A DNA stretch of 56,716 bases from positions 1-56,716 of IMG/VR virus record IMGVR_UViG_3300010403_000026; one strand, 5' to 3'. The translations under genes and the position numbers were made by a program. Position 1 is the stretch's first letter, and each line of letters opens with the position of its first letter. Shown here piece by piece: positions 2,290 through 53,050 of this stretch. The notes below the pieces were generated by a model. It had not been told where the DNA came from and did no database searches. It worked only from the letters and a program-made list of their open reading frames with translations. The DNA is from a virus. Its lineage: Duplodnaviria > Caudoviricetes.

Positions 2290-2814
2290 CTAGAGCCAAA
2301 CGCTCGCCTGAAAGTAATACTGCGTCCCTACCTGGCTGACCATCGTGAACGTACCGGCCGGGACAGAGTCGGCTGGGTCAATCTGAAGCTGGATGGCGGA
2401 GACTCTGGACGACGGTCCCGGATAGCCCTGTTTATACAAGTCTACTTGGTAGTTGCTTCCCGTGCCAGACACGATGACGCCGATGATCTGTCCCTGGACC
2501 TGCCTCTGGGAGATCAGGTTCGAGAGATCGGACCCATCGGACTCCGACCCGGAGAGCAGGCCAAGGTCGTCGTAGGTCAACTCTTTCGACTGGTCGTTGC
2601 TCTCCAGCGCGAGCAATCCATCCGTCGAGGAAGGCTGAAGGCGGTCGATGATCTTCAGCGGGGGGCGTCCAGTCTGCTTGACGATCTCCAGTCCCCCTTC
2701 GATGCGGACCGGAATATTGGACGTGAAGAGGGCGTAGAGTTCCTTCGCAAGTTCATCAATGCTCTTCCAGTTTGTCCGCATCAGGCGGTTGGAGGCTTCG
2801 CCGAAGAGGCTCAT
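2290..2814 (-). CDS. Hypothetical virion protein
   Basis: 174 aa, coupled to the upstream tail gene. Confidence 0.6.
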   Translation of the reverse strand: MSLFGEASNRLMRTNWKSIDELAKELYALFTSNIPVRIEGGLEIVKQTGRPPLKIIDRLQPSSTDGLLALESNDQSKELTYDDLGLLSGSESDGSDLSNLISQRQVQGQIIGVIVSGTGSNYQVDLYKQGYPGPSSRVSAIQLQIDPADSVPAGTFTMVSQVGTQYYFQASVWL

Positions 2815-5546
2815 TTCTCGACGCCCTCAAGTCCCAATCTGAATATGGTTACTGGGTCCGGACCCGTGACTCCCCGAAGCTCCAGTGTAACGCGCCGGAT
2901 GCCGTCCATTGATTCCTCCCTCCGTCCGGAGAGGGCTTTCTTCGCATACCCGATTCGTTTCGAGAGCGCGACCACCATGTCGGGGTCGCCCCTCTGGGTT
3001 GCGACCTCCATTTCCTGAGCGCCCGTCTGGTCGATCCCCATGTTCTCCGGGTCTTCATCCTGATCGACGAATCTTCGCATGTCGAACGTCATGTCGGACT
3101 TGGTGGGGATGAACGACACGTCGAAGCTCCTCTGCTGGTCGGCTTCGCTCATAGCCAGTTGGTGCGACCCTCCTGACCACACCCACGGGACGCCCCCGAT
3201 CTGGTACTTGGAGGTGTCGTCCGGAACGATCATCCACGGCCACGAGAAGGTGAGCTTCGTTGAAGTCCTCGCGGAAACGATCCGCGTCTGTCCCTTCCCT
3301 CTGCCGGAGGTGATCGTCACCGGAAGTCCGATGGTATCCGCGAGGAAAGAGGCGCTTGAGTCCGTGAGGGACGAGAATCCACCGGAGGTCGCGGTCCCAC
3401 GCTCCGATCCCCCGGTCGCGCCGTCCAGTTGCCCAACCCAATAGGCGAGCACTTCACGGAACTGTGAGCCAAGGTAGCACTGCTCAGTTCCGGACCCCCA
3501 TCCTCCCGATTGGGGGCCGATGCGCCCCACGCAGGAAGCTCCCACGGGGACTTTGAATTCCTCGATCCACCAGCGCTTCTTCAGGTACGAGAAGCACAGC
3601 GCATGACGAGGGAGGTAGTCCCCGGAGAGAGCGACGAACCACCGGATTACCCCCTGAGTCTGGTAGTGCAAGCAGTGGAAGAATCTCTGCGAGGACCAGT
3701 TGATCTGGTGAAGGGAATTCGGGTCGGAGCGGAAGACGCTCTGGATCGCATCCGAGACCGCCCCTCCACCTTCACCGCCGTCGAACAAGTGAACCCCCTG
3801 CTCATCCAGCATGTAGACCCCATCGTCCGTGATCGCCCAACACCTGTTGTTGATGCAGCCACGGAGTTTCGCCATGTAGACCACCCCGTCTCTTGCAGGG
3901 TTGGTCTGGAAGGTCAGACGGTGGATGTGCCGCCTTTCGAGGAGGAACACGAAGGAGCGGTACGAGAACCCTCCCGTGAAGTCGTCACCGTCTTCTTCGA
4001 TGGAAAGCCCGTTCGTGACCGGGACGGCTTCCGCGAGTCCGGCCTCCGAGTAGTAGCAGATGCGGCGCTCCGCAGGGGCAGGACGGATGGAGTAGAAGGA
4101 ATAAGTGGAAGTCGCGCCACCGTAGGCTTCCGTCAGCGTCAGCGTTGACCCAGAAGCGCTCGCGATCTCGTAGGGCTTGGGAGCGCCGTCGATGTAGATG
4201 AAGCGATTCGCGAACGTAACGGGCCAACTGGCGTTGATGGCCGTGACGGTCGTGGACCCGTTCGTGACCGCGACGTTTCCTTCCGAGTAGGGGACTTCCC
4301 CGAAGTAGAACATCCGGTCCTGATGGGCGACCGGGAAGCATTTCCAGTTCGGGGGGACGGTGTAGATGTTGACAATATCGTTCCCCTCCACGTCGAAGAA
4401 GGGGACCGCTTCCTGCGCGGACAATTGGGAGTCCGAACGGGTCGAAGTGGCCGTAGTCGTCAACAAAGAAGTCGTGTCCACATCCACGTAGAAGGTCGTC
4501 GCCTGCCCATCGGTGTTCCGGAGAATCTGCCTTCTGACTACTTTGGGTTCGACGGGAACAGGGAAGCCCGTGTAGGTGATCGTCAGACACCCGGAGGTCC
4601 AGATCGCATTGGGGCTTGGCGAAAAGGCGAAGATTCCCGAAGAGCCATTGAGGTTGAAGCGATTCTGGTCCAGAACCGTGACTTCCCACGTCCCGTTGGC
4701 GTCCTCGTTCCCCAGGACTCCGGAGACCTTGACGATCAGGCCCGTCGTCAGCCCGTGTCCGTTGGACGTGATGGTGATCGGGGTCGTGGGAGAAGCATCG
4801 GTGATAATCCCCGTCGTCCCCGTGGTGATGATTCCGCCGCTGACGTAGTTGGCGTTTCCACCGCTCGTCTGGTTGATGGCGAACGTCGTCCCCGAAGGGA
4901 CGGTGAGGACAGTCCACGTTCCGTTGGCGTCCGTGTTCCCCACGACCCCCGTGATGACCACCGTGGCCCCGACGTTGATGAGGTGAGCGACCGCCGTCGT
5001 GATCGTGATCGGAATCTGGAGCTTCCACGTCGCTGAATTGTTGACGTAGACGCCGTTGCTCGTTGAACCGTTGAGCCTGAACTGGGTGGCGGTGACGACC
5101 GTGATCGTCCACGTCCCGTTCATCGCCGTGTCCCCAAGAGCGCCCGTGATCTTCAGAATGTCGTTCGTGGCCCTTCCATGAGGGGTGGCCGTATTGCAGA
5201 CGATGGGGGTTCCACCCGCCCCGGTCGGAGAGGAGAGGACGGTCCCGGAAGCTGAGTTGGAGGCGTTCGTGACCTGAATGGTCCTCCCCCCACGGGCGTC
5301 GAGCTGAGCCGACACGGGGGAGAGGTTGGAGAAGTTGCCGAAGCGGTCAACGAATCTGGAGTACGCGAAGTAGCTGCCGATGATGTTCCCGATCCCGGAA
5401 CCACTCATCGTCAGCGCCGTCAGTGGAGGAAGAACGCCAGCCGGTTCAGCTTGCGCTGACTGCCCGTCCCACCTGAGCGAATTTTCTATTCCATTGCAAA
5501 TAAGAAGGATATTTGATCCCGGCTCTAACGCAAAATTATCAGGCAT
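2811..5546 (-). CDS. Large tail protein (tail tubular B / stabilisation-like) with three FCCH-like beta repeats
   Basis: ~911 aa; repeats of the form PITIT..HG..TG..V.I.GV.G...ANGTW.V; start ATG 5546 (or GTG 5555) overlaps the HNH stop. Confidence 0.7.
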
Positions 5547-6174
5547 TTTGGCCACGAATCTTTCTGGGCGGCTTGGTTAGCGCATCTTCAACGCTCCATC
5601 CACGGTCAAGCCTTTTAACAACCATCAAGCTATTCACCCTCATCCTCTCAGCGAACATCGAAACGCATCCTCGCTCACCACGAAACTCAATGATCCGATT
5701 AGACCTTGTGTTCCTAGCTTGCTCTTTTGGAGTCGCCCACCGGCAGTTGTCAGGCTCGTAGTTTCCATTATTGTCGATTCGGTCAATCGAATGAACGCTA
5801 GAAGGCATCGGCCCCATATCGTCATAGAAGTTTTGGAAAACAAGCCATCGCTCACAAACCGTGATTCCTCTGCCTCCATAACGTGGCCACGATGGGGAGT
5901 TGGGGTTTAAGCACCGCGATTTCATCGCATTCCAAGAGTAGTATTCCTTTTGGCCGTACATGCCGTGCGTTGTCGGAATTTCTCTTTGTCTTTCTCGGTG
6001 GAGGCATCCGCAGCTTCTTGTTTTTGAAAGAAGAAGAACTTCTTTTTCGGTTCCGCAGGCGCACCGACAAAGCCAATAAATTCGGTGCTTCCCGCTGTGA
6101 AATGCTTTTCTTGCGATTCTGAGAACTGTTAACCTTCCAACAACGTCACCTGTCCGGTCGATAAATCTGCCCAT
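5539..6174 (-). CDS. HNH homing endonuclease (cassette 1)
   Basis: [44 protein letters not shown] motifs; AT-rich; probable start MGRFID at 6174. Confidence 0.85.
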
Positions 6175-6280
6175 GTTGTGTACCTTGGCGGGCCAACCCG
6201 AACAGCCGCGAGGCGGTACACTGCCAAGCGGCCATTCGGATTTTCGATGGATCATGACTTCCACCGTTCCCAATTGGATT

Positions 6281-6346
6281 TTACGAAATGCCGTTGCAGA
6301 TGAGCAGGATGTTGGACCCGGATTCAAGCGCGAAATTATCGGGGAT
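6281..6346 (-). pseudogene. Stranded original N-terminus of the large tail gene ([21 protein letters not shown])
   Basis: 18/20 aa identical to the N-terminus encoded at 5487-5546; preceded by GGAGGT. Confidence 0.85.
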
Positions 6347-6349
6347 ACG

Positions 6350-7012
6350 TCACCTCCCGTACCGGCCTTCGGCGATCTGAGCGGAGATGCGACTGGTGTC
6401 TCGCTGAACGACGCCGACGAAGGTTTGCGTCTTGGCGAAATCGTTGGCTGATCGCACTGAGGACTGGGAGAAAATGACGGTCTCGCACCCGTCTTCGACC
6501 GGGCCGCTGTAGTACACGGTGATTTCGCAAAAATCCACCCACGCCTCAACGGGGTCGGTGCCGCTGTTTTCAAGAACGAGCAGGAGCGAACCGAAGTCGT
6601 CGCTGTTCACGACATCGACATCAATCGACGGTTCGCTCCAGAGGTCGGAGGAATTTCCGTAGACATAGGTCGTCTGAGTCGTGGTCCAGATTGCCGGGTC
6701 AGCGCCAATCGACCCCGCTACGGAGACTCCCGGACCAATAGTCAGAAAGACCCCTTGATCCTTTACTTCCCCGGCCTCGGTGTTTTTCCGCCTCGTCCAT
6801 GCGATTTCGACTCCACGGATCATCGACCCGTCAGGAATCTCGAAGCCGAAGGCGCGTGCCTCAAGGTAATTCGTCTGATCGGACGCCACCATGTCCGCAA
6901 CGGCGTAGTTGTGGTCGTCGGAAAGGATGTTGGACGTGTTGGTCCAGTCAACGGTCCCTCCACCGGCAGGCTCGTTGTCGGCAAACGTCGGCGAAGAGGT
7001 GACAGATGCCAC
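6350..7012 (-). CDS. Virion-associated protein (acidic, beta-rich)
   Basis: 220 aa, GTG start, in tail cluster. Confidence 0.6.
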
Positions 7013-12455: not shown

Positions 12456-13649
12456 TCATCTCCTGATATTCGGTTCGTCGGGCTTGGGTCGATTCGTGCA
12501 GGAGCTATCAATCCTGAAGCGTGCCGTCCCGCACCCCTGGTCGTCCCGTGGACGGTCCGTGCAGCCCTCGTCGGACCTCTTTGGTCTATAGGGGGATGGT
12601 GGTTCAGGAAGAGGCGGAGGCGCGACGTAGGGAACCTGCCACTCCTCGGCTTCGTGGATAGTGGTCCGCCACGAAATCTGCTGCCTGCGGTCAAGCCACG
12701 GGTACTCCTCGTCGATCCGGACTGACTTCAGTGAAGACCCGATCTCGTCGTCGAGGGATGGCCGGTTTGTCCACCTCACGCTCTGGACTTGCGCGATCCA
12801 GTATTCATCCTCCACCCGAAGAGTCTTGTGCAGCCCGTCCTCATCGGAAACGACCCGGTTCGTCCAAGTGATTTTCTGCTGAAGAGTAAGGTGGTGCAGT
12901 TCGTCTTCGAGCGGGAACCCTTTAGCGCGGGCGTCTTCGTCCTGGAAGGCCCGTGAGGTCCAGACGATCTTCTCCGTCTGGGCCGTCCAGTGATACTCCT
13001 CTTCGTAGCGGTTGACGGCCACGATCCGGATCACGTCGTCGTCGAGATAGACGCCCTTGAGCCAGGGTTGCGCCTGCTGAACTGACTGGTAGCCTTCCTC
13101 GTTCTCAAGGAAGAAATTCTTCAGGTTCGCCGAGGAGTCTTCGTCGGTGAAGAGCGTCTTAGTCCACGGGTTCGACTGGACTTTGAACTCAGGGAGGAAG
13201 TCCTCTTCGGTGATCCCGAATCCAGCCACCCCTTTGGACTTCGCGAATTCCTCCTCGTCCACAACGACCGTGATCTTCCACGGGACCGACTGTTTGACGG
13301 ACTGATAGCCACCCTCTTCCTCGCGGAAGAAGTTCTTCAGACTGGTGGAGATTTCGTCGTCAAGGGCCGGGCGCGAGAGCCACGGATTGAACTGAAGGCC
13401 GGACTGGTAGCCGCCTTCCTCTTCGGAGTAGAAGTTCTTGGGGTTCGGTTCGGGGTCTTCGTCCTGAACGGCGGGAAGGGGATTTGGTGGCTGTCCCAGC
13501 CACGAGATCAGTTGTCGTTGCTGGTTCCACGGAAAGGAGGGGAAGCCTTCTTCCTGTTCGAGAAAGAAGTTCTTCGCCCCAGCAAGCTCCTCATCGGTCG
13601 GCAGGGAGAGATATTTATTCCTGCCGTCTGAGGTGATGAGGATTTCCAC
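12456..13649 (-). CDS. Acidic repeat protein (about ten ~30-35-aa repeats)
   Basis: Repeating EE(G)Y...Q..PW.....DE pattern; Pro linker; Cys-containing tail. Confidence 0.7.
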   Translation of the reverse strand: MEILITSDGRNKYLSLPTDEELAGAKNFFLEQEEGFPSFPWNQQRQLISWLGQPPNPLPAVQDEDPEPNPKNFYSEEEGGYQSGLQFNPWLSRPALDDEISTSLKNFFREEEGGYQSVKQSVPWKITVVVDEEEFAKSKGVAGFGITEEDFLPEFKVQSNPWTKTLFTDEDSSANLKNFFLENEEGYQSVQQAQPWLKGVYLDDDVIRIVAVNRYEEEYHWTAQTEKIVWTSRAFQDEDARAKGFPLEDELHHLTLQQKITWTNRVVSDEDGLHKTLRVEDEYWIAQVQSVRWTNRPSLDDEIGSSLKSVRIDEEYPWLDRRQQISWRTTIHEAEEWQVPYVAPPPLPEPPSPYRPKRSDEGCTDRPRDDQGCGTARFRIDSSCTNRPKPDEPNIRR

Positions 13650-13914: not shown

Positions 13915-14445
13915 TCAACCTTCCTGAATCTTCAGCCATCCCCAATGCTCGCCACGATAAATCCGACTTACCTGAGTCTGCCCGATGCCCATCTCGACGG
14001 CGACTTTATCTTGAGACATCCCACTGGCAAGCAGCTTCTTGACTCGAATCACCTGCTCTTCGCTCAACTTATTTTTAGGGTTCTTGGTTCCACGCGAAGT
14101 TTTCCCGTCACGGATTTTATCTTCGCCGTTGTTCTTTTCTCTCGTGCCCCAGCACAGGTTCGACACTCGGTTGTCTTGTTGACCACCAACTCCGTGGCAC
14201 GCTTCCATTCCCTCTGGCCTTGGGCAAACGAAGGCTTCTAGTACAAGAGTGTGAATCATTCTCATCCCGGCAAACGATTCGTTTTTCAAATACGCGCGAT
14301 GGTAGCCTTGAACACTCGGATTCGGAGACAAGATTTTTGGTTTGTCCCTTTTCTTGTTCCGAGAATAGCTTCTGACTCGACCAAGATTCGACACCTCGTA
14401 ATTCGGAAAGCCAACGACCTGACGCCATTCTTCGGCTTCTTGCAT
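13915..14445 (-). CDS. NUMOD4-HNH homing endonuclease with C-terminal HTH (cassette 3)
   Basis: EEWRQVVGFPNYEVSNLGRVRS; IHTLVLEAF..EACH..DNRVSNLCWGT; KLSEEQV HTH. Confidence 0.9.
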   Translation of the reverse strand: MQEAEEWRQVVGFPNYEVSNLGRVRSYSRNKKRDKPKILSPNPSVQGYHRAYLKNESFAGMRMIHTLVLEAFVCPRPEGMEACHGVGGQQDNRVSNLCWGTREKNNGEDKIRDGKTSRGTKNPKNKLSEEQVIRVKKLLASGMSQDKVAVEMGIGQTQVSRIYRGEHWGWLKIQEG

Positions 14446-17687: not shown

Positions 17688-18079
17688 CAGGTGTTCAAAA
17701 CGCCCGTGAGGATGTCGGCGGTCCCGACGAGGAAAGACCATGTGGTCGTGCATGACCCCGCGCTCGTGAGCCTCAAGAGCCACTGCCCTCCGGGGATCGT
17801 GATCGAAACCTGATCGGTGGCTGCGGGATTTCGAGCGATCACCCGTGAGTAGGAGGGGACGGTCTCGTAGGTTCCACCTCCATCCGTTGAGCGATAGACG
17901 TTCGCCTCCCACCCGGCGCTATTGGCAGTCGTGTTGGGCTGGAGGCCCTTCACTTCAAAGTTGATCTCGAAGCCGAGGAACGACACCGGGATCGTCAGGT
18001 CGGCGGACTTTGGGAGAACGGTCCCGGAGAGCAGGACAGCGCCCGTGAACGCATGTTGTGGAACAGAAATTGTGGCCAT
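17687..18079 (-). CDS. Virion protein
   Basis: 130 aa beta-rich, VYRSTDGG; first codons A/T-ending. Confidence 0.7.
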   Translation of the reverse strand: MATISVPQHAFTGAVLLSGTVLPKSADLTIPVSFLGFEINFEVKGLQPNTTANSAGWEANVYRSTDGGGTYETVPSYSRVIARNPAATDQVSITIPGGQWLLRLTSAGSCTTTWSFLVGTADILTGVLNT

Positions 18080-18080
18080 A

Positions 18081-18203
18081 TCAAATCCTTTGGTGTGATT
18101 TTCCGGTCACAATTCTCCAGACCGTGTTCTTTGACACGGAGAACCTTCGCCCTATAGCCGTCAGCCCATTGCCTTCGCTATACAAACGCTTGATTTCACG
18201 CGC
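18081..18203 (-). pseudogene. Remnant C-terminal HTH of a deleted HNH endonuclease (cassette 4)
   Basis: Start-less frame AREIKRLYSEGNGLTAIGRRFSVSKNTVWRIVTGKSHQRI*, similar to the HTH tails of the 13915 and 21261 HNHs. Confidence 0.75.
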
Positions 18204-18226
18204 TAAGGCGTACTGACAGTCGCCAT
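18203..18226 (-). pseudogene. Stranded original N-terminus of 17687-18079 (MATVSTP*)
   Basis: Matches MATISVP; ATG lies 1 nt after the upstream stop. Confidence 0.7.
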
Positions 18227-18227
18227 G

Positions 18228-18920
18228 TCACACGATCCCTTGGGCGTCCTTGAGTCTGATCGGTTCTACTTTGGGCTTACGGTAATCTTTCAGCGTAATC
18301 GACCTTGTGACAAGGTGCGGGCACTCGATCCGGGCATCCATGTAGGGTTTGATGCCCAGTTTTTTCAGCCTTGTGAAGAACGCCATGTCCTCTCCGGACT
18401 GGCCGATCACGTCGAATGGTTGCTCGTTCAATTCTTCCCTGATCCGGTTGAAGACCCTGCGGCGGACCATCAGGCACCCGCCGCCTGCGGCCGAGACAGT
18501 CTGAAGTGGGAGTGCCTCGTCCCAAGCGCCCAATAGCTGAAACTGGCCCTTGTCGTCCTCGCCGAAGATCACCGGAGGATAAGGCTCTTTCTTGAACTGG
18601 TAGACCCCGCAGAGCACGTCCAGATCGTGCATCTGCATCCGGTCCCACATTCTGACCAGGGTATCGGGTTCCGGTTCATGGTCCGTGTCGAGCATGAGGA
18701 TGAACTCCCCCAGCATCCGTTCCGCCAGTTGGTTTCTGGCCCACGAGTGGAAGGAGAAGTCCGCGTAGTCGAGGTGGATGTACTCCGTGTTGGGGTCGCA
18801 GGCGAAATAGTTCGAGTAGGCGATCAGTTGGCCCCACGCTTTGCAGAACGTGGTCAAGACGGCAGGGACGCCGAACATTCCTGCCAGCGTCCCGATGGGC
18901 TTTCGTCCGAAGATCATCAT
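18228..18920 (-). CDS. GT-A fold glycosyltransferase
   Basis: ARNQLA, LMLDTD, GGGCLMVRRRVF, GEDMAF, CPH. Confidence 0.85.
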   Translation of the reverse strand: MMIFGRKPIGTLAGMFGVPAVLTTFCKAWGQLIAYSNYFACDPNTEYIHLDYADFSFHSWARNQLAERMLGEFILMLDTDHEPEPDTLVRMWDRMQMHDLDVLCGVYQFKKEPYPPVIFGEDDKGQFQLLGAWDEALPLQTVSAAGGGCLMVRRRVFNRIREELNEQPFDVIGQSGEDMAFFTRLKKLGIKPYMDARIECPHLVTRSITLKDYRKPKVEPIRLKDAQGIV

Positions 18921-19588
18921 TGCCTCAGTGCAAAAACAGTCGGCCCGTCAATCGAGCCTTCGACGACCGTGAACCCAGCTTTTCCAGTCGTGCTGCCGTC
19001 GAAATTAGCCCCCTGAGACAAATCGGCGAAGACTTTCTCAAGGTTGGTGATCTTCCGGCAGAGAATGGGTTTGACGTTGCTCCACCCCGCGTCCTGAGTG
19101 GTCCCGCCCGTGTTTGATGGAACGTCTGTCAGGGCATCCTGAAGTCCCTGCCAGATTTCCTTCTTGGAGAAGTCGGCGACGTTGACGCCATCGACCTGCT
19201 GAGTGGGGGTTATCAGGGCGATGACGTTCTGCTGGCGCTCCATGATGACGTTCGACCGGCACAGAAAGACGGTCGCGTCGAGCTGAAGGACGGTGGGAAC
19301 CGAGTCCTTGGAGGTCAGCTTCTTCCACTGGATGTTCCCACGGATCAGGGAGCACGGGACCAGCATGTGGTTGGCAAAACAGTCCGTGGCTGGGAATCCG
19401 TTGTACCAGTCGGCGATAAGGTTTGCCGCCGTGCCGTCCGCAGGGTTCGAGTCCTTGATCTGGACCGAGTTCCCATCGACGGTGATGGTGGCCGTGTTAT
19501 TGTTGATGTTGGTGAGCAGCGTGGCTTTCTGGGCGGCGGACAGGGACGCCTGAAGGGTCATGAGGAATTTCCTCAACCAGTCGAGCAT
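18917..19588 (-). CDS. Hypothetical virion-associated protein
   Basis: 223 aa with GGAGG Shine-Dalgarno. Confidence 0.6.
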   Translation of the reverse strand: MLDWLRKFLMTLQASLSAAQKATLLTNINNNTATITVDGNSVQIKDSNPADGTAANLIADWYNGFPATDCFANHMLVPCSLIRGNIQWKKLTSKDSVPTVLQLDATVFLCRSNVIMERQQNVIALITPTQQVDGVNVADFSKKEIWQGLQDALTDVPSNTGGTTQDAGWSNVKPILCRKITNLEKVFADLSQGANFDGSTTGKAGFTVVEGSIDGPTVFALRQ

Positions 19589-19617
19589 AAGTCCTCCGTG
19601 TGGCGATCATCACCCCG

Positions 19618-21207
19618 TTAGGGGGCCATCCTCGCCCGCGCGACCACTCCCCAGCCAGCAAAATTCCCGTAGTCGAGTTCCTGACTTTCGACCAGTTCGA
19701 GGTCGGCATCCCTGAGCCACGATTCGATGACCGACAACGTGATCGGTCGCTCGTGGTAGGCCGACTCACCGGGGGGATACCGCAGTCCTTCAGTCGAATG
19801 CTGAAGGCTGGTGGGACGGTAGTCCTCCGGGCATGTAATGATGATACGACCATTCGGGTTCAGAACGAGCGAGGAATTGCGCAAAACCCTCACCGCGTCC
19901 TCGTCGGTCATGTGCTCCAGGATGTCCCCAAGGACCACGGTGTCGTAGCTAGTGACGGGGAACGGTTCCCTGGCGTCGTGGATCACGTCCGCCTTGGTCT
20001 TCTTGCCCGTCCACGGAATCTCTTCCATGAGGTCCATGTTGGTCCCATGTCTGCCGATGTTGGCCGGATCGTCCGCGCAGCCGACGTTCAGCACCATCCC
20101 TCGAAGATGCTTGAGCTGGAAGGCGAACTGCGCCACGCACAGCCCATCCCAACCGTAGAGCCACGATTCCCACTGATCGACGACCCGCTCCCAGCAGTGA
20201 CGGGAACGGGCCTCAACCATCATCCGTCCCCTGATCTCCTCCTGCGCATTCGGATTGTTCATCAGGGCCACGATCTCCCCTACGAAGTAAGCGCGGATCA
20301 ACTGGTCGTTCGGGTCGCCTTGAATGAAGACACCGTTCAGGACGTTCTCGGCCAGCGCGGCGCGGGGCGAGCAGATCGGGATCGCTCCAAGGGCCTGCGC
20401 CTCCATCGAGGTGATGCAACTGGTTTCATGGAAGTTCGTCGGATAGCACCAGATGGCAGTTTTCATCCACTCCCGGTAAAGCTCGTTCTGGTTCACCCGC
20501 CCGTGCCAGTGGATGCCGGGCTGCTCTAATTGGCCTTCGATTGACTTTTGGACCTCGCCCATCCACGGGTAGCGGTCCTTCAACTTCTCGATGTTGTTGA
20601 ACCCGTAGAAGATGTGAAGTTCGGCGTCCGAGACGAACTCGCGGACCCTTGGGAAGATTCTCAGGAGGGTCTGGAGTCCCCGGTCGGGAGAAGAGGCATA
20701 CATGAGGCGATGGGAATTGCGGTCCTGCGCGGGGACGCTTCTCAGCAGGTCGGTTTTGACACCATTCGACGTGACGACGATCTTCCCCTTCAGGAGCGGA
20801 AGATTCAGCTCCATGTGGCGCTTGTGCCACTCGCACAAAGCCAGCACCTTGTCGATCTTCGGGGCGGTCTCTTCCGTGACCCCACGGGCGATCTCGTCCT
20901 GACACATCAACCAGACGGTTTGCCCTTCCTGCTTGTCCATTTGCGTCAGGCACGACGCATCCCGGTAGATGATCCAAATCCCCTTTTGGGTGAAGTCGGC
21001 CGATTCCAGAGGCTTCCAGACGGTCCCACGCCATTCTCCGGGGCAATCGTCGGGAATCGGGGCGTAGGAGGTGACTTTGTGGCCCCGTCGAGCCAAGCGC
21101 CACGCCATTTCTACCGCGCTCGTTTCAGAGCCTCCTACGCCCCTGATAATCGAAGACCTGTAATCCCATTGCTCAAAAAACACCGGATTGTAGAAAAAAA
21201 AGTTCAA
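19618..21207 (-). CDS. GT-B (GT4-like) glycosyltransferase fused to a SAM methyltransferase
   Basis: GGSE, YASSPDRGL, ETSCITSMEAQALG; then VLNVGC, GDILEH; TTG start after GGAG (in-frame ATG at 21255 also possible). Confidence 0.9.
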   Translation of the reverse strand: MNFFFYNPVFFEQWDYRSSIIRGVGGSETSAVEMAWRLARRGHKVTSYAPIPDDCPGEWRGTVWKPLESADFTQKGIWIIYRDASCLTQMDKQEGQTVWLMCQDEIARGVTEETAPKIDKVLALCEWHKRHMELNLPLLKGKIVVTSNGVKTDLLRSVPAQDRNSHRLMYASSPDRGLQTLLRIFPRVREFVSDAELHIFYGFNNIEKLKDRYPWMGEVQKSIEGQLEQPGIHWHGRVNQNELYREWMKTAIWCYPTNFHETSCITSMEAQALGAIPICSPRAALAENVLNGVFIQGDPNDQLIRAYFVGEIVALMNNPNAQEEIRGRMMVEARSRHCWERVVDQWESWLYGWDGLCVAQFAFQLKHLRGMVLNVGCADDPANIGRHGTNMDLMEEIPWTGKKTKADVIHDAREPFPVTSYDTVVLGDILEHMTDEDAVRVLRNSSLVLNPNGRIIITCPEDYRPTSLQHSTEGLRYPPGESAYHERPITLSVIESWLRDADLELVESQELDYGNFAGWGVVARARMAP

Positions 21208-21260
21208 ATTATCACTCCGCTGGCATTGGATGGACAGAGCAGATTCACTATCCATTCTTA

Positions 21261-21851
21261 ATGGAAGAATTCAAGCCAATACCCGGATATGAAGGCCAAT
21301 ATCAAATCAACTGCAATGGGACGATTCAGTCCTGCAAACAAAGAATTGGGAATAAATGGGAAAACACAAATGAGTGGACGGCCATCTGCTCCAACCGAAA
21401 TAAAACTGGCCACCATGTAATCAGACTGTCTTCGTCCGGAAAACGCCAACAGTTCCTTGTCCATCGGATAGTTTTGACAGTATTTGGTCCACCGATGCCG
21501 TTTGATGGCGCTCTCGGATTGCATAAAGACGACAACCCAGACAATAACCACATCGACAATTTGTACTGGGGAACATCCAAGCAAAACCGCGCCGATGCGA
21601 TGAGGTCCGGACGCGCCTATATTCCAAAAGGAGAAGAAAACGGGAAGTCGATCTTGACCATTGAGCAAGTCAAAGAAATCAAAGAGTTTCCAAAGACACG
21701 AGGATACCGCATAGTCCTTGCGAGCAAGTATGGCGTTACGATTGCCACAATAAAAGACGTTGTTTCTGGCCGATCTTGGGCTGCTGTTGATTGTGAAAAT
21801 CCAGCCCCAAGGACTTACGGAACTGGTCCTGATGCCGGACGGATTCGGTAG
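21261..21851 (+). CDS. NUMOD4-HNH homing endonuclease, inverted relative to the operon (cassette 5)
   Basis: EEFKPIPGYEGQYQIN; VHRIVL..LHKDDNPDNNHIDNLYWGT; HTH tail. Confidence 0.9.
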   Translation: MEEFKPIPGYEGQYQINCNGTIQSCKQRIGNKWENTNEWTAICSNRNKTGHHVIRLSSSGKRQQFLVHRIVLTVFGPPMPFDGALGLHKDDNPDNNHIDNLYWGTSKQNRADAMRSGRAYIPKGEENGKSILTIEQVKEIKEFPKTRGYRIVLASKYGVTIATIKDVVSGRSWAAVDCENPAPRTYGTGPDAGRIR

Positions 21852-21935
21852 CTCGGAGCCACCGATTCCGCCTTGGACGGATGAGCGCCAATCCCACTGC
21901 TCGAAGTGGACCGGCGAGTAAAAGAAGAACTGCAT
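21852..21935 (-). pseudogene. Stranded original N-terminus of the GT4 gene
   Basis: MQFFFYSPVHFEQWDWRSSVQGGIGGSE, 19/28 identical to 21124-21207. Confidence 0.9.
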
Positions 21936-21943
21936 TGGGCGAA

Positions 21944-22381
21944 TTATCCTTTCATGGCCTCCCGGACGCGGGCCTTCAGGCTTTTCTTCTTCCTTCCCAG
22001 TTTGGGGATATTGAGTTCGTCCACCCGCCCGTCCGCCTTGTGGGTCATGGAGCCATCGACAATGTTCAGGTTCCGCTCACGGCAGACGCGCTTCACGTCG
22101 TCTTTCCCGGACACCCATGCCCTCGGATCACCGGGGTACTCAGCCAGTCCGCCGATGTAGACCTTTCCGGTCGTCGAGCCGCCTTTGGCCCTCAGTTCGC
22201 TCGCGAGTGCCTCGCCCTGAATGTTTCCCAGTTTGGTGTTGAACTTGTTGTGCTGGCGATTCGCCATCCCGGCGAACATGGTGGCCTCTGTGGAGATGCT
22301 CGGAGGAGCGCACGAGCTGAACATCTCGCACAGCTTGCAGGATTCTTCGGTGCGGTTTCCGCCGCAGGTTTCGCAGATCAT
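21944..22381 (-). CDS. Hypothetical protein downstream of portal
   Basis: 145 aa, PGDPRAWV motif, ATGA overlap. Confidence 0.65.
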   Translation of the reverse strand: MICETCGGNRTEESCKLCEMFSSCAPPSISTEATMFAGMANRQHNKFNTKLGNIQGEALASELRAKGGSTTGKVYIGGLAEYPGDPRAWVSGKDDVKRVCRERNLNIVDGSMTHKADGRVDELNIPKLGRKKKSLKARVREAMKG

Positions 22382-24318
22382 TGGGCCACCACGGGTTTCT
22401 TGGAAGCGCCGTTGCTTGAGGGTTTAGGCGGTCCCTTGCCTCCCTCTATAGAGGGAGGTTCAGGCGGCGGGGGAGGCTGGAGCATGTAGCCAGCCGTCTC
22501 CAGATCGTTGCTCTTCCCCCAGTCCGAGATGAGGTTGTTGACCGGCCGCACGTCCCCGGTCTGCTGGGCGTAGGTGTAGAGCGGGGTGAAGAGGTTCTGC
22601 ATCGCGCTCGTGAGGTTGGCGGACTGACGGTCGCGATTCGGCTTCCGCGTCGAACCGGCCTCGATGCGGTACTGGAGCTGACGGGTGATGTCCTCGGAGC
22701 TTCCGTTGGCGATCAGGACTTTCCAGAAGTAGGCCCCTGCGGGTCCGAGGATGGGGAGAACGTCCTGCGGGGTCAGGTGAGTCCTTGCGCAGATGGCTTC
22801 TTTCTTCGCCACTTCCGTCATGGCTTCTTCGACTCTGGTCGCCATGTCGTCAGGACGAATCTTCAACTGGTCGTTCTTGACTTCCGCTTCCGAAGCGGAG
22901 CGGTACTGGTGAGTGGTCCCGCCGTACATGAGTTCCGTCAGACCCACTCGTTTTTCAAACTGCTCACCCACCATCGCGATCACTTTGATGATGTCCTGAT
23001 TCATCTCCGGGTGCTGAAGGAACTGGACGACGGACTTCAAATCCTGTCCGGGAGCATCAGAGACCCCCACTTCCAGAAGGGTCAGGTCCGGCCCGTGAGT
23101 AATGGCTTTCTTGAACTCCTCGTTCATCCCCTTCCGAACAGCAATGAAGTCCCGGCTCGTGACCCGCATCTTGCTGGCGAGGAACGAGTACGCCCAGTTG
23201 AGGAATTTCAATTCACCGATTCCAGCCTTGACATGGCTCATCGGCCACGCCTGTCCGGGGACGGGATGAATCTCGAAGAACGTGCATGGCCATGTCCCGT
23301 CCTTCCAGTACGGGGTCGGCCAGCGGAGTCTTTCGATGACCTCCTGATCGGGTGCGCTTTCGAGGACGTGCGGTGGCAAATTGAGCGGATAGGGGACGTT
23401 CTCAGCCACGGCGAGAAAGACGTAATCCCCATAGGCGTCGAGAGTCGGCCTCAGTCCTTGGGGGATTCCTTCAAGTCGTCCCCCAAGGCCCATCTTGGAG
23501 TAAATCTTCCAGTAAACCAGAAGGTCGGAGGTCGTCCCTTTCTGCTGCCAGTAAGTCGATTTTTGAACGTCTTCCTCGGAAGCCTGATTCAACGACTTCA
23601 GGTTCCCGCTCAGCGAACCCGGCGGGAGTTGATAGTCACGTTCCACCATCCAGACCGGGTGACAGCACCTTCGGTAGATGTACTGGCAGTCTTCCCGGCA
23701 ATCAGCGTCGGGGTCTTGGCCGTAGTTGTTCACCGAGTCGTAGAAGGAACCCGACATCTTCCAGCCGGACTCCGGGACGGTATAGACCTCCGTCCACAGA
23801 ACCCCCATCCCCTTGATAATCATCTCGTCGATGGCGCAGCGGGCGTTGTCCTTCAAGTTGAGTTCGTATGGGGTGAAGTTCAAATACCCTTCGAGAAGTG
23901 CGGCGCGGGCTTTGTCCTGCTGGAGCGCCATGTCGGCTGGCCCTTGGATTGCCTGCATCATCATCTGCGTCATGGGGTCATTGGGATCGCCGTAGAACTC
24001 CGGGGGAATCTGCGGATAGCTCCTTGGGGAGACCATCCGATACGGGTTTTTGTGATAGAGGGACGGGCCGAAGAGTTGCACCATCTCGGCGACCCGGTTG
24101 GACTGCATCCTGAGTCCGGGTTGGGGCCAGTCCTCGTCGTCGGCGAACATTCCAACCGGCTTGCTCTTCGACCCCTGGGTGTAGAGCCAGTCGTAGGGTC
24201 CGTTGAAGAACCGCATCGCCTCGTCGGCGTCGTCCTGAAAGAGCTTCTGCTTGACCTCCTGGGCGGCGCGAATCTTTCTCACCCAGGCGGCGCAGATCGG
24301 CTTCAGAGGATGGTCCAT
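22378..24318 (-). CDS. Portal protein
   Basis: 646 aa, helical, SASEA motif, follows terminase. Confidence 0.75.
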   Translation of the reverse strand: MDHPLKPICAAWVRKIRAAQEVKQKLFQDDADEAMRFFNGPYDWLYTQGSKSKPVGMFADDEDWPQPGLRMQSNRVAEMVQLFGPSLYHKNPYRMVSPRSYPQIPPEFYGDPNDPMTQMMMQAIQGPADMALQQDKARAALLEGYLNFTPYELNLKDNARCAIDEMIIKGMGVLWTEVYTVPESGWKMSGSFYDSVNNYGQDPDADCREDCQYIYRRCCHPVWMVERDYQLPPGSLSGNLKSLNQASEEDVQKSTYWQQKGTTSDLLVYWKIYSKMGLGGRLEGIPQGLRPTLDAYGDYVFLAVAENVPYPLNLPPHVLESAPDQEVIERLRWPTPYWKDGTWPCTFFEIHPVPGQAWPMSHVKAGIGELKFLNWAYSFLASKMRVTSRDFIAVRKGMNEEFKKAITHGPDLTLLEVGVSDAPGQDLKSVVQFLQHPEMNQDIIKVIAMVGEQFEKRVGLTELMYGGTTHQYRSASEAEVKNDQLKIRPDDMATRVEEAMTEVAKKEAICARTHLTPQDVLPILGPAGAYFWKVLIANGSSEDITRQLQYRIEAGSTRKPNRDRQSANLTSAMQNLFTPLYTYAQQTGDVRPVNNLISDWGKSNDLETAGYMLQPPPPPEPPSIEGGKGPPKPSSNGASKKPVVAQ

Positions 24319-24320
24319 GC

Positions 24321-24638
24321 TTATTTCTTCACGAGTTCGTCGATCAGCTTGTTGATCTTCTTGTCCCGGTCGAGCAAGTCCCAGCAGCCTTCGGTGGTTT
24401 CCCTTCTCCGGAGGTCGGGGTCGTCGATGTGGTAAACCCCGTCCCTGGGCTGGCCGTTGAACCGTCCGATGGACAGAACCCAGACTTCGAGCACCCGTCC
24501 GTTCGATGAAGTCACGATGGCGGCGACCGGGTTTTCATCCGAGGGGGAGTGACGCCACAGGACGGTCTGGCCGACCTCCACCGGGGGAGGGGCGAACGGA
24601 GCATTGGCTTTGACGGGCGCTTGGGCTGTTGCGGTCAT
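24321..24638 (-). CDS. Hypothetical protein
   Basis: 105 aa, P.VGQTV.W...AAIVT. Confidence 0.65.
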   Translation of the reverse strand: MTATAQAPVKANAPFAPPPVEVGQTVLWRHSPSDENPVAAIVTSSNGRVLEVWVLSIGRFNGQPRDGVYHIDDPDLRRRETTEGCWDLLDRDKKINKLIDELVKK

Positions 24639-24689
24639 GGGAATCTCCTTTGGTGAAATCGTAGCGGAAACACAGGGCCTTTGCGAGCC

Positions 24690-26387
24690 TTATCTGCCGG
24701 GTCCGAGGTTGACGAACGACCGACCAAGTTTCTTCCTCTCTTTTTCCTTCTTCTCCCGCACGGCTTTGACGGCGTAGCTCTCCCGTTTCTTGGCCGGAGG
24801 GGGTTTGACGTACGCGCAGCCGTGCATGGCGGCGTACCGCAGGGTGTCCGGGCCGTCGCAGTTGAGCTGTGCAGGCTCATCCGTCAGGACGTTTTTAATC
24901 ATCTTGTTGTGGTAGCGCTCCATCTGGTGGGCGAGTTTGTTCGTCCTCGAAAGAGCGAAGAGGACGGTCGGTCGCCCGTCTGGCGCTATGTGGAGCCACG
25001 AACGGACAGCTTCGACCCCTGCCTTGATGTCGTCCGCCCCCCAGTGGAACCCGTGCCCGGTCTCCAGTGAGAAGACGTTGTTCTTCTGAAGTTCCTGCGA
25101 GTATTGAAAGCCAACCGTTTTCCCCGACCCCATTTCGGTCTGCTTTGCCATGTGGGAGTCGATCAGGAACGCCTGAAAGTGCTGCCCGGAGCACTTCTTC
25201 GCCATCTCCTCCCCGTACTTGATCGCCGTGCAGTTCTCGATGTAGAGTTCGTCGTAGACGTACTTTTTGTTCCCCTCCTCTGGCGGAGGGACGGCAACGA
25301 AGGTCGTGACGCACAACTGCCTTCCTGGGTCCGTGATCGCGTAGCGGGTCCAGTGAGGGGGAGGCTCTGTCATCTCGACTCCATGAACCGCAAGGGTAAA
25401 TTCCGGGTAGACCCTCCGGCGCAGGTAGGCGAATTCACCAAGGATGCGGACCCGGTACTGCTCCGGGTCGGCGAACTTAAGGGCCAGCAGTTTCTTTTGA
25501 TCGGATGGAAGATAAGGATTGTCTTCGAGGAGCAGGCGGAATTCCACTACTCGCGGGTCTTTGCGCTCCCGCTCCTTCTCGGCTTGAAGGCTCAAATCAA
25601 AGAGCCGATCAGTCCCCGCTTGAGGGGTTGCGGACCAGATGAACTTTCCCTGACGGTCCACGAGTCGTGAGGCCATTTCCGGATACCACTCCGGGTCTTC
25701 GATTTCCTCGTCGAAAAAAGCCAGGTCAATGTCGCTCCCCTGTGGGGGTTTCCCCAGCGAGGAGTAGAAGTTGATCTCCCACCCGGTCGAGAGGACGACC
25801 AGTTGCGGCTGACTGGCCTTCTTGTTCTCCCACGCGATGTCCTTGACGTACCTTCTGGGGATCAGTGGAGGCGCTGGTCGGGACTCGTGCTTTCTTGTCG
25901 CGTCCTCCTCGGTCCACGGGCGGAAGGCCCGCCATCTTCCGGTCGTCTTGTCACGGACGATCCGGAACGCATTGGGTTTGAAGAGCTTTCGGAACATCAC
26001 GTCCGCGACGTGTTTGCCATCCTTGCCGACTGCGAAACAGCGCCCGTCCAGTTCCGGGTACTTGTGGTTAGGGTCTTGCCCGGTCAGCGCGCGGGCGACC
26101 TCGACGGAGGTGAGGAGTGTTTTGCCAGCCCGGTTCGATCCACGAGCGAGACGTTCCGGGGCAGTGGATTTGTGGAACTCGTCCGCGCTGACGATTTTGT
26201 CGTTCAGCCAGATCGCGGGAAGTGGTTCATACAGCTTCAGGGCCTCGATCTGCCTCCTCGCCAGTTCGTGGGCCAGGTGTCTCAGGTCTTCGCTCACTGC
26301 CTGGAGGAACTTCAGGTCCGGTTCCTGTCCCCGGTCCAGCGCTTCCTCCTGAAGCTCCTCCGGGGTTACTGGTACGTCCCGCGCCAT
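24690..26387 (-). CDS. terL: Terminase large subunit
   Basis: GSNRAGKT Walker A, FFDEE Walker B, SATP, ITDPG and DGPDTLRY nuclease motifs. Confidence 0.95.
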   Translation of the reverse strand: MARDVPVTPEELQEEALDRGQEPDLKFLQAVSEDLRHLAHELARRQIEALKLYEPLPAIWLNDKIVSADEFHKSTAPERLARGSNRAGKTLLTSVEVARALTGQDPNHKYPELDGRCFAVGKDGKHVADVMFRKLFKPNAFRIVRDKTTGRWRAFRPWTEEDATRKHESRPAPPLIPRRYVKDIAWENKKASQPQLVVLSTGWEINFYSSLGKPPQGSDIDLAFFDEEIEDPEWYPEMASRLVDRQGKFIWSATPQAGTDRLFDLSLQAEKERERKDPRVVEFRLLLEDNPYLPSDQKKLLALKFADPEQYRVRILGEFAYLRRRVYPEFTLAVHGVEMTEPPPHWTRYAITDPGRQLCVTTFVAVPPPEEGNKKYVYDELYIENCTAIKYGEEMAKKCSGQHFQAFLIDSHMAKQTEMGSGKTVGFQYSQELQKNNVFSLETGHGFHWGADDIKAGVEAVRSWLHIAPDGRPTVLFALSRTNKLAHQMERYHNKMIKNVLTDEPAQLNCDGPDTLRYAAMHGCAYVKPPPAKKRESYAVKAVREKKEKERKKLGRSFVNLGPGR

Positions 26388-31822: not shown

Positions 31823-32098
31823 TTACTCGCTACGGCCCTCATCGCACTCCGTGATCGTCAGCCCCCAGTTGTCCATGCACTTCCGACAAGCGGGTCTTCC
31901 ACCACCGACTTTGAGGCAGAACTGGCAGAGCGACTTCCTCAATCCAAGGAGGCCGATCTCACGATTGCACGTTCCCCTCAGCCACTCGGAAAGTTCAAGA
32001 CCCTTGGAGCGCGCGGCTTCCACCCACGCCAGTTTCTCGACGTGGGTGATCCGGATTTCCAAGCGCTTGTCTTTCTGTCCGAGGATGACCTGTTCCAT
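31823..32098 (-). CDS. Ribbon-helix-helix regulator with C-terminal Cys4 motif
   Basis: RLEIRI..EK..W..AA...GL.LSEWLR; CQFC...CRKC. Confidence 0.7.
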   Translation of the reverse strand: MEQVILGQKDKRLEIRITHVEKLAWVEAARSKGLELSEWLRGTCNREIGLLGLRKSLCQFCLKVGGGRPACRKCMDNWGLTITECDEGRSE

Positions 32099-32299: not shown

Positions 32300-32735
32300 G
32301 CTTCTCTCCGTGTTGACAGACTTCGCCCATCCGCTCCGGGGCGATCAGAGAATGGCAACCATTGCAGTGCCACTTGTTGCCGATGACCGTTCCTCCCTGC
32401 CCGTAGTGCGAGCGGTCGATGACGAGTTCGTGCAGGTCTCGAACGGCTTTCCCAAAAGCCACCTCGGATTTCGAGAGTGGCCGGTAGTTCTCCAGCAGGG
32501 CCGCGACAGCCGCTTCAAGCGAGAGCGACTCGTGGACGAAGAACTCAGCTTCGCACCAAGGAGTCGAGCGGTAGAACGAGCTTTTGTATCGTGGTCTGGC
32601 ACACAGGTTTAACGGAAGGTCTGGCGGGTCATTCGACGGAAGAGGCTCGTGAACCTGCATAAGTCCACCGCGAGCATTATCGGCTTCCCTTCTTTGGCCG
32701 TCCCACGGACCACCAACGAACAAGTAAAGTCTCAT
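32286..32735 (-). CDS. Hypothetical protein, GGPxDG family
   Basis: MRLYLFVGGPWDG; GGAG upstream. Confidence 0.65.
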   Translation of the reverse strand: MRLYLFVGGPWDGQRREADNARGGLMQVHEPLPSNDPPDLPLNLCARPRYKSSFYRSTPWCEAEFFVHESLSLEAAVAALLENYRPLSKSEVAFGKAVRDLHELVIDRSHYGQGGTVIGNKWHCNGCHSLIAPERMGEVCQHGEKHAVS

Positions 32736-33065: not shown

Positions 33066-33093
33066 TTGGGACCACCAACGAACAAATAAACGC

Positions 33094-33294
33094 TCATATC
33101 GGCACCAGTCCTTTGAAAACACCAACCACCTTCTCGCCGCGCATCTCCCACTCGTAGACCGCTTTCAGCCAGTCCTCTGGGGCCTGCCACTCGCTCCGAG
33201 CCACCGCGTGCTCGTAACGAATGGCCACAAACTCCACGATCTTGCCGTCGAACGGGCCACCAATCAGCTCAGCGTGCTCAATCTGCGTCGTCAT
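33094..33294 (-). CDS. Hypothetical protein, GGPxDG family
   Basis: AELIGGPFDG; ATG lies in the repeat. Confidence 0.65.
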   Translation of the reverse strand: MTTQIEHAELIGGPFDGKIVEFVAIRYEHAVARSEWQAPEDWLKAVYEWEMRGEKVVGVFKGLVPI

Positions 33295-33547: not shown

Positions 33548-33966
33548 CACTTGTCCTCCATAGCTTCCACGTCGAACGCATCGAGCGCTGACTTGGCGTT
33601 CGCCTTCCGACAGGCATCGCAAGACGGACGGCCCTTCCGAGTGCAGCTTTGGCAGAGCTTCCCCTTCTTGGCCACGGGCCTTGGAGGAGAGGGTTTGCCC
33701 AGCACCTCGATGGTGTCCTTGAAGCCACCGTGGACAGACCCGACAGACTCCAAGTCCGACTCGACTGCCGATTCCCTGATGGCAATCGGGTTAGGAGCCT
33801 CGACGCCACGGTACTGAAGCATCTCCTCAGCGGACGGAAGCGTCACGTCCCGATTCGCCTGCCGCCTCACCCACTCCGAGAGCTTCAAGCCTGAGTCCGC
33901 CGCCCGGCGCTGCCACTCCGCCTTCTCCTCATCGGAAATCCTGATCTTAATCTCACTGCCCTTCAT
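33547..33966 (-). CDS. Ribbon-helix-helix regulator with Cys4 motif, paralogue of 31823
   Basis: EIKIRISDEEKAEWQRRAADSGLKLSEWVR; CQSC..CDAC; AAGGAGG. Confidence 0.75.
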   Translation of the reverse strand: MKGSEIKIRISDEEKAEWQRRAADSGLKLSEWVRRQANRDVTLPSAEEMLQYRGVEAPNPIAIRESAVESDLESVGSVHGGFKDTIEVLGKPSPPRPVAKKGKLCQSCTRKGRPSCDACRKANAKSALDAFDVEAMEDK

Positions 33967-50232: not shown

Positions 50233-50625
50233 GTGACCACCGAATCCGCCTTTCAAGCCGCCCTGGACGCCGAGCCGGACAACCACGCGCTGCGGGGTGC
50301 GTTTAGCGATTGGCTTGAAGAGCGGGGCGACTGGAGGGCGGCTGGGTATCGGTGGATGAGCGGTAATGAGAAATTCGCAAATGGCAGTTTGGTCGATGGC
50401 CCTTACTGGTCTGGTATCACGCTGGAAATAGGCGAAGAAGGCGACCGTGATGATGTACCGTACAACCAAAGGCGACTGCCAAAGGAAATCCACGCCGCTC
50501 TTCATCGTGGAATCGAGCCGTTTCCGTGCCATTATCGGCAATACCCTACCCGTCAAGCCGCCGAAGAGGCGCTCTGCCGCGCATTGCACGAACACCCCGA
50601 ACTCTTGACAGGAGCCGCAGCGTGA
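50233..50625 (+). CDS. TIGR02996 domain protein
   Basis: ESAFQAALDAEPDNHALRGAFSDWLEERGD.RA. Confidence 0.8.
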   Translation: MTTESAFQAALDAEPDNHALRGAFSDWLEERGDWRAAGYRWMSGNEKFANGSLVDGPYWSGITLEIGEEGDRDDVPYNQRRLPKEIHAALHRGIEPFPCHYRQYPTRQAAEEALCRALHEHPELLTGAAA

Positions 50626-50846
50626 CCACCAACAAGATCGACGTGATGGAAATGCAAGTCATCGAGCCGAAAGGTCAGCGCATCCACAGCGATTTCGATG
50701 TGTACCTTTCGCCGTGGCCTGACTTCAGCCAGCTTGAGCAGTTCCTCGACGGCGCTCCGACCGACGTTCCGTGCATGGTCAGGATCACGATGCGGAAGAT
50801 GACGCAGGCAGACTTCGACGCCAGATGCGAAGGATTTGAGCTGTGA
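50622..50846 (+). CDS. Hypothetical protein, copy A
   Basis: 74 aa, near-identical to 53051. Confidence 0.75.
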   Translation: MTTNKIDVMEMQVIEPKGQRIHSDFDVYLSPWPDFSQLEQFLDGAPTDVPCMVRITMRKMTQADFDARCEGFEL

Positions 50847-53017: not shown

Positions 53018-53050
53018 GGTCCACTGTTCTTGGATGCTAGGGAACCATAA

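Follow-up and report, generated by a model that had tools for sequence, protein, structure and literature searches.

A candidate HNH homing-endonuclease cassette with a substitute gene start in a phage glycosyltransferase-methyltransferase gene

To our knowledge, homing endonucleases are usually said to persist inside genes only by way of an intron or intein, or at the cost of a split gene. How, then, can an endonuclease gene lie within a phage gene that still reads as a single piece? The question is raised by one locus in a linear, 56.7-kb virus record of IMG/VR (IMGVR_UViG_3300010403_000026), the whole of which (56,716 nucleotides) is referred to here as the window. The record represents a soil phage, is estimated to be 62% complete and has a G+C fraction (GC) of 0.578. 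An inverted HNH endonuclease gene stands between the first 28 codons and the remainder of a gene for a GT4 glycosyltransferase fused to a methyltransferase (the GT4 gene), and a second, diverged version of these 28 codons directly precedes the body of the gene. We consider it likely that an I-HmuI-like HNH homing cassette from a lower-GC relative entered the GT4 gene between codons 28 and 29.

Anatomy of the cassette and origin of the two gene starts

In the direction of the GT4 gene the locus consists of a native stub, the inverted nuclease gene, a spacer, the replacement of the first 28 codons and the native body (Table 1). Re-reading the sequence confirmed, to the base, the coordinates and translation signals given in a first-pass annotation of the window, which had been made from the sequence alone. 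The ATG of the stub (21935-21933) is 11 nt downstream of AAAGGA (21952-21947), and the TTG of the second copy (21207-21205) is 7 nt downstream of the GGAG in the spacer. At the other end of the cassette, the TAG of the nuclease gene occupies 21849-21851 and the adjacent base, 21852, belongs to the last codon of the stub; there is no DNA between them, and the exact abutment claimed earlier (21851/21852) therefore stands. From the TTG start a single 529-codon frame runs through the gene with no internal gap or stop. Stub and replacement share 19 of 28 residues, 13 of these 19 being specified by different codons (a recount reproduced both earlier figures), and 50 of 84 bases are identical. When the left and right flanks of the HNH gene were compared by tblastx, the stub and replacement were paired with E = 7e-12, and a tblastn search of the whole window with the GT4 protein matched only the stub and second-copy sites, with no third copy. 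No ribozyme was found by Rfam at E ≤ 1 in 20500-22500, and the RNA around the new start folds no better than shuffled sequences (z = 0.32).

Comparison with homologues distinguishes the two copies. The GT4-methyltransferase fusion family comprises 798 proteins at E ≤ 0.001, and our homologue counts rest on the best 120 of these 798; the listed proteins minus the window's own cluster give 119 homologues. The N-terminal comparison was made with 109 rows, the other 10 of the 119 having the motif GIG[A/C/N/Q]SE (those 10 are also contiguous). With residue 27 or 28 closing the motif in 87 of the 109, TTG 21207, and not ATG 21255, is established as the true start. The homologue N-termini are nearer to the stub in 85 of the 109 rows and nearer to the replacement in 7, with 17 ties. 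Against a profile built from residues 1-28 of the family, the stub scored 61.4 bits and the replacement 51.1 bits, the replacement itself being among the training rows. Synonymous sites between the copies are saturated, with 13 differing codons observed against 11.8 expected for independent draws.

The copies also differ in composition, the GC of the stub being 0.58 and that of the replacement 0.42. At third codon positions (GC3) the stub has a value of 0.79, similar to those of the neighbouring genes (0.75-0.79), the body (0.79) and body codons 29-56 (0.75). Values on the cassette side are 0.54 for the replacement, 0.47 for the spacer and 0.48 for the HNH gene. The replacement has 15 GC-ending codons out of 28 (P = 0.0036 under host usage) and the stub 22 out of 28 (P = 0.0009 under HNH usage). 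The cassette as a whole is the largest low-GC island of the window, with 200-nt windows below 0.47 GC from 21101 to 21801. Taken together, the composition, the proximity to homologues, the profile scores and the saturation lead us to conclude that the low-GC copy arrived with the nuclease and that the high-GC stub is the earlier start of the gene. By these sequence measures, codons 1-28 of the replacement are shown to be of foreign origin. The 28-codon replacement described in the first-pass annotation was accordingly imported and not duplicated in place, as judged from its cassette-like composition and the host-like stub.

Table 1. Coordinates of the GT4 locus and of related features (window positions unless stated otherwise)
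Feature	Coordinates	Strand	Remarks
Whole cassette, 728 bp	21124..21851		Inserted precisely at the boundary of codons 28 and 29 in the GT4-methyltransferase gene
Stub, native 28-codon GT4 N-terminus	21852..21935	-	Last codon encodes the E of GGSE
Inverted HNH endonuclease gene, 196 aa	21261..21851	+	NUMOD4, HNH_3 and C-terminal helices; intact
Spacer, 53 nt, cassette-borne, GC 0.43	21208..21260	-	GGAG at 21218-21215
Replacement of codons 1-28, cassette-borne	21124..21207	-	TTG start, in frame with the body
Native body, codons 29-529 (501 codons)	19618..21123	-	GT4 (GT-B) glycosyltransferase-methyltransferase
Read-through open reading frame (ORF), 225 codons	21258..21935	-	Stub plus codon-aligned antisense of the whole HNH gene
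Site 1 stub, 21 residues	6349-6287	-	18/21 residues shared with 5549-5487
Site 1 replacement	5549-5487	-	Start of a 914-aa tail-like gene, 2811-5555
L121 cassette (positions in its own contig)	4665-6450	+	Unrelated metagenome contig; DnaG-like primase gene
Upstream 145-aa ORF	21944..22381	-	In the minus-strand operon; no Pfam match; last codons contain AAAGGA (21952-21947)
Gene order around the locus		-	Terminase large subunit, 646-aa ORF, 145-aa ORF, GT4 gene, GT2 gene and others

The hybrid gene, its nuclease and the antisense frame

The GT4 gene matches Glyco_transf_4 (35.1 bits, cut-off 28.5), Glyco_trans_1_4 (28.8 bits, cut-off 27) and Methyltransf_11 in Pfam. An AlphaFold model of the hybrid protein has a predicted local distance difference test score (pLDDT) of 92.9, and a Foldseek search with this model retrieved PimA (2gej, E 2.8e-13), glycogen synthase, PimB', MshA and BshA. 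The identification of the host gene as GT4 in the first-pass annotation is thus supported by domains, model and fold matches. In the model, residues 2-6 form strand beta1 and helix alpha1 begins at residue 26; the 28 codons would therefore encode beta1, the glycine-rich loop and the first turn of alpha1, and the insertion point falls at the N-terminus of this helix. The junction had been placed at a conserved motif, and in an alignment of 30 sequences the G..G.SE residues G23, G25, S27 and E28 are indeed invariant. The replacement keeps every invariant N-terminal residue of the family in this alignment. On the basis of the model, a GT-B Rossmann domain lacking these residues would lose its first strand. 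The hybrid gene is shown by its reading frame to be intact, and in both sequence and model it looks functional. As the reading frame continues from the 28 donor codons into the native body, translation from the new start would yield the full-length enzyme.

The plus-strand ORF exceeds the Pfam cut-offs for HNH_3 (33.5 bits, cut-off 24.8) and NUMOD4 (25.5 bits, cut-off 23.4). Its closest solved protein is I-HmuI of Bacillus phage SPO1 (1u3e; E 5.9e-13 over residues 3-170), with approximately 30% identity as judged by eye in the printed alignment. These matches agree with the inverted HNH gene reported in the first-pass annotation. I-HmuI is a nicking enzyme, and the window HNH resembles it in having an N-terminal sheet, the HNH motif and C-terminal helices. 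Whereas I-HmuI is encoded within a group I intron, the window HNH is free-standing and is known here from sequence. H88 and N109 of the window protein align with I-HmuI H75 and N96, so that the catalytic His and the metal-binding Asn are kept (I-HmuI residues H75, N96 and D74 are named as in PMC12724721).

The nearest relatives of the HNH protein in a collection of 5.8 billion proteins are 64%, 60% and 48% identical to it (P0121, P0122/P0136 and P0123). Because these relatives have even its C-terminal tail, the ORF is essentially full length. Alignment scans of contigs gave only matches of ≤42% identity over long stretches, and tblastn against cultured phages returned 1128 records, all below 60% identity (best 36%). 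None of the 41 HNH loci retrieved has a GT4 gene beside the nuclease. On sequence criteria, the plus-strand ORF is an intact, free-standing I-HmuI-like HNH homing endonuclease, with predicted activity.

The window contains a second NUMOD4/HNH_3 gene (13915-14445, minus strand), which has a C-terminal helix-turn-helix (HTH) and is 25% identical to the HNH studied here. This gene is oriented like its neighbours, its antisense frame contains one in-frame stop, and no flanking duplication above noise was seen around it.

The old start of the GT4 gene opens the 225-codon read-through ORF because the frame of the stub is in phase with the codon-aligned antisense of the HNH gene, and the HNH gene has no TTA, CTA or TCA codons. 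The ORF stops at a TAA (21260-21258), 50 nt ahead of the new TTG. In a codon model the probability of an open antisense frame is 0.005 with uniform usage, 0.10-0.15 with HNH-like usage and 0.56 with host usage. Among 32 distinct HNH regions of ≥130 codons, two have a stop-free antisense frame (the GT4-site HNH and L088), and none of the other family members at GC 0.40-0.50 has one. The open frame is unusual and suggestive, not decisive: it may have been selected, for example against polarity on a late operon, or it may reflect luck. The gene calls of JGI/IMG, Logan and ENA contain the 225-aa read-through ORF in place of the HNH gene, and the exact HNH protein sequence is absent from the protein collections covered (5.8 billion and 15 billion proteins); public annotation therefore misses the nuclease. 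The locus is in this sense an annotation trap, in which three public gene callers took the antisense ORF.

Recurrence of the layout and relatives of the invaded gene

The window contains at least two stub-plus-replacement cassettes, at the GT4 site and at a second location, site 1 (Table 1). The central ORF of site 1 (inside 5539-6573) has an HNH-like SIDRID..N...N.RW signature with no Pfam match at E ≤ 0.01, and this nuclease-like gene is unrelated to the GT4-site HNH. A further case is provided by L121, where the first 28 codons of the primase gene continue in frame into the coding sequence of an HNH_3/HTH nuclease, which is 37% identical to the window HNH. The native GTG start of the L121 gene overlaps the upstream stop (TGA), and the replacement start overlaps the stop of the nuclease; this replacement resembles the stub in 19 of 29 residues and 62 of 87 bases.

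In 125 sources totalling 1.14 Mb, 53 sites matched a profile of the I-HmuI-like family, and 50 of them were testable; the survey omitted the window copies (L001 and L002) and three sites at contig ends. One locus, L087, was excluded as a low-complexity artefact, with 111 matches in GC-rich off-frames. Protein-level duplication flanking the nuclease was detected at 2 of the 50 testable sites, namely the GT4 site and L121. Owing to near-duplicate loci (e.g. L089-L092 and L095-L097), the 50 sites represent fewer independent cases. As far as sequence comparison goes, the stub-nuclease-replacement layout is shown to recur elsewhere, with HNH-type genes.

Among relatives of the GT4 gene, the N-terminus is joined directly to the body in all 119 listed homologues, 109 with G[IVLM]GGSE and 10 with a variant glycine. 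The first-pass annotation had made its reading depend on stub and body occurring contiguously in relatives, and they do so in these 119 proteins and in 80 viral loci. It had also proposed a survey of GT4 homologues for the same insertion point; the contiguity in homologues was borne out, but no second case of insertion came to light (0 of 80 viral loci). Of 81 sources, only the window has two N-terminal copies around an insert. Two N-terminal matches were also seen in four viral loci (L011, L040, L041 and L048), each of which has two complete tandem GT4 genes.

One locus, L014, whose contig ends one base before codon 29, was considered as an assembly break at the same junction and was rejected, since the gene is intact across the ends. 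The other end of this contig (L014/G001) encodes residues 2-71, and the ends overlap by ~130 nt inside the GT4 gene, in a circularly permuted arrangement. They differ by one base in codon 30 (His/Tyr), and the record is classed as linear without end repeats. Two 866-aa GT4 homologues, P0040 and P0104, have an intein with LAGLIDADG after the ETSC motif in the C-terminal GT domain; the GT4 family has therefore been struck by mobile elements at a second conserved motif. Two others, P0029 and P0087, have an extra domain of 135-190 residues between the GT halves.

All sizeable genes near the GT4 locus lie on the minus strand, the sole exception being the plus-strand ORF 21261-21851. The terminase large subunit was assigned from a Terminase_6N match of 22.8 bits, barely over the Pfam cut-off of 22. 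Other repeated segments occur in the window, all on the minus strand. ORF starts at 32706-32735 and 33068-33097 share 8 of 10 residues (MxxYLFVGGP type) and are 360 nt apart; there is no nuclease between them, and the first-pass annotation had termed this a nuclease-free cassette array. Diverged paralogous segments are found at 50610-50840 and 53039-53269 (77 aa, 66% identity) and at 31949-32074 and 33838-33963 (42 aa, 43% identity), the members of each pair being ~2 kb apart. Acidic-rich internal protein repeats are present at 12642-13595, within a 397-aa ORF (12456-13649).

Explanations of the locus and its relation to known systems

If the block is a homing cassette, its entry could be envisaged as follows. 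The nuclease would nick or cut insert-free alleles at or near the conserved GGSE/T coding sequence (the stroke marks the junction), and the body-side end would invade the donor allele. Synthesis would then proceed to the left, copying donor codons 28-1 followed by the spacer and the nuclease gene, and the new strand would join the end of the stub at the nuclease stop codon, leaving the native 28 codons stranded upstream. Thereafter intact alleles could be entered by ordinary homing, with the stub providing homology on the left and the body on the right, and the cassette may still be mobile by this route. Before the junction, the replacement and the stub differ at 6 of the last 18 nt and at 11 of the last 24 nt. 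It is possible that the diverged replacement blunts self-cleavage, protecting the carrier from its own nuclease.

Several observations weigh against entry by homing. The direct contrast in GC3 between stub and replacement is weak on 28 codons (Fisher P = 0.089). Since only 2 of the 50 testable sites show flanking duplication, most HNH relatives seem to work otherwise. The equivalent of I-HmuI D74 is Leu in the subfamily to which this HNH belongs. No sigma-70-like promoter and no obvious Shine-Dalgarno sequence were found ahead of the HNH gene on the plus strand, so its expression is unexplained; on the minus strand the promoter scan found one site against 1.0 expected. An insert at GT4 codon 28/29 was present in none of the 80 viral GT4 loci and none of the 119 listed proteins. 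Neither an insert-free sister allele nor a close relative was found in four collections: cultured phages were compared with 18000-25000 by blastn, viral and metagenome contigs were scanned with single proteins, and genome contigs were scanned with P0136. As none of the 80 viral loci shares the insertion point, the GGSE junction is put forward here as a predicted homing target.

Some of these points would suit illegitimate or one-sided recombination with a lower-GC phage, in which the HNH gene is an incidental passenger and does not target the GT4 gene. The HNH gene is without visible expression signals and the insert-free sister allele was not found; in addition, nuclease genes are known at boundaries of inter-phage recombination (PMC10448857). 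We nevertheless regard this explanation as unlikely. The two junctions coincide at a single base of the gene, and the block finishes at the nuclease stop with no spare DNA. Independent sites also have this layout, in each case around an HNH-type gene.

Local duplication offers another route to two gene starts. The first 84 bp could have been duplicated in tandem and have diverged in place, with a separate HNH insertion between the copies, and the copies are indeed direct repeats flanking the insert. Decay in place is, however, expected to leave the opposite of what is seen here, where the expressed copy is foreign and the unexpressed copy is host-like. Moreover, synonymous sites are already saturated, yet the stub scores higher on the family profile. 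This route seems to us quite improbable.

The record is a metagenome assembly, and the stretch is present in only one sequencing run, which is probably the source sample. Two co-occurring strains might therefore have been joined in error at the conserved motif. A second assembler, however, produced a 4476-nt Logan contig that spans 19954-24429, and hence all junctions, with zero differences and even depth, although it comes from the same sample and is not independent. In the protein collection, another record (label SRC) likewise has the stub-antisense ORF, together with a GT4 protein that is 99% identical and includes the same second copy. In the contigs of the one run no joint that skips the cassette was found; contigs drop rare variants, so that absence of such an allele is not implied. 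Furthermore, the duplication of the start, a junction exact to the codon and the intact ribosome-binding site would not be produced by a chimera, and we consider assembly error very improbable. The idea of a self-splicing element (an intein or an intron of group I or II) that the HNH would serve as homing enzyme is scarcely tenable: the inteins of P0040 and P0104 show that GT4 relatives do have such elements, but at another motif, and here the Rfam search was negative, the HNH gene runs opposite to the GT4 gene, no Hint domain is present, and splicing is unnecessary because a complete substitute start with its own ribosome-binding site is present.

The homing cassette that we favour has its closest parallel in organelles. 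In fungal mitochondria, mobile endonuclease ORFs (mORFs) make gene hybrids, as in atp6 of Allomyces macrogynus and in atp6, atp9, cox2 and nad3 of Glomus sp. (PMC3630166). According to the same text, an mORF combines an endonuclease ORF with a foreign, diverged copy of a gene end that is joined in frame to the core of the gene, and the native gene end is left beside it as a dead or unexpressed duplicate that is nearer to relatives; the window locus resembles mORFs in both respects. mORFs are described there as replacing the C-terminus and as encoding LAGLIDADG or GIY-YIG enzymes in organelle genomes, for the most part in the orientation of the host gene and in many cases in phase with it. In contrast, the window cassette replaces the N-terminus, encodes an HNH enzyme on the opposite strand and resides in a phage. 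Since it is the N-terminus that is replaced, a ribosome-binding site and a start codon must be supplied by the cassette as well. By analogy, we read the GT4-site element, which is well preserved and sharply delimited, as belonging to a known kind of endonuclease cassette, of which it would be an inverted, N-terminal form in a phage, a mirror image of the mORFs.

Among phages, the locus can be compared with T4 MobA (genes 39/60), likewise an HNH homing endonuclease inside a conserved phage gene. In 10.1101/2022.08.31.505936, the MobA insert is reported to carry a host-homologous stretch around the nick site (homR, 67-81% DNA identity), and divergence near the site bears on self-immunity; both features have their likeness in the window. 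MobA is further stated there to split the topoisomerase gene into two polypeptides, to delete a host segment and to need translational bypass. Unlike that gene, the window gene is in one piece, the host segment is retained and bypass is not needed.

Free-standing phage endonucleases, whose genes adjoin a conserved gene, cut the allele that lacks the nuclease and are copied in with flanking donor DNA (co-conversion), as outlined in PMC2988022. In the intronless homing of T4 Seg and Mob enzymes the nuclease genes are intergenic, whereas the insertion in the window is intragenic and compensated by the duplicate start. In-gene insertions are given only as split genes in the text of PMC2988022, from which the word stem 'duplicat' is absent. 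Among open-licence papers and preprints, we found none on an N-terminal stub and replacement around a phage endonuclease. It is tempting to see in recoded gene-end cassettes a third lifestyle of endonucleases inside essential genes, the inverted one being adapted so that ribosomes loading at the old start read through the antisense of the nuclease gene, which would avoid transcriptional polarity in the late operon and hand ribosomes to the new start, but we hold this view only tentatively and think it more doubtful than not.

The locus makes a precise prediction of the nuclease target, namely the sequence encoding GGSE/T of a GT-B enzyme. It is also a natural example of target-site 'recoding', which may confer self-immunity, and it illustrates how foreign gene ends can be grafted onto phage genes. 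Overall, the element's own diverged first 28 codons, together with their translation signals, would represent a solution in a phage, besides introns or inteins and gene splitting, to the problem of persisting inside a gene.

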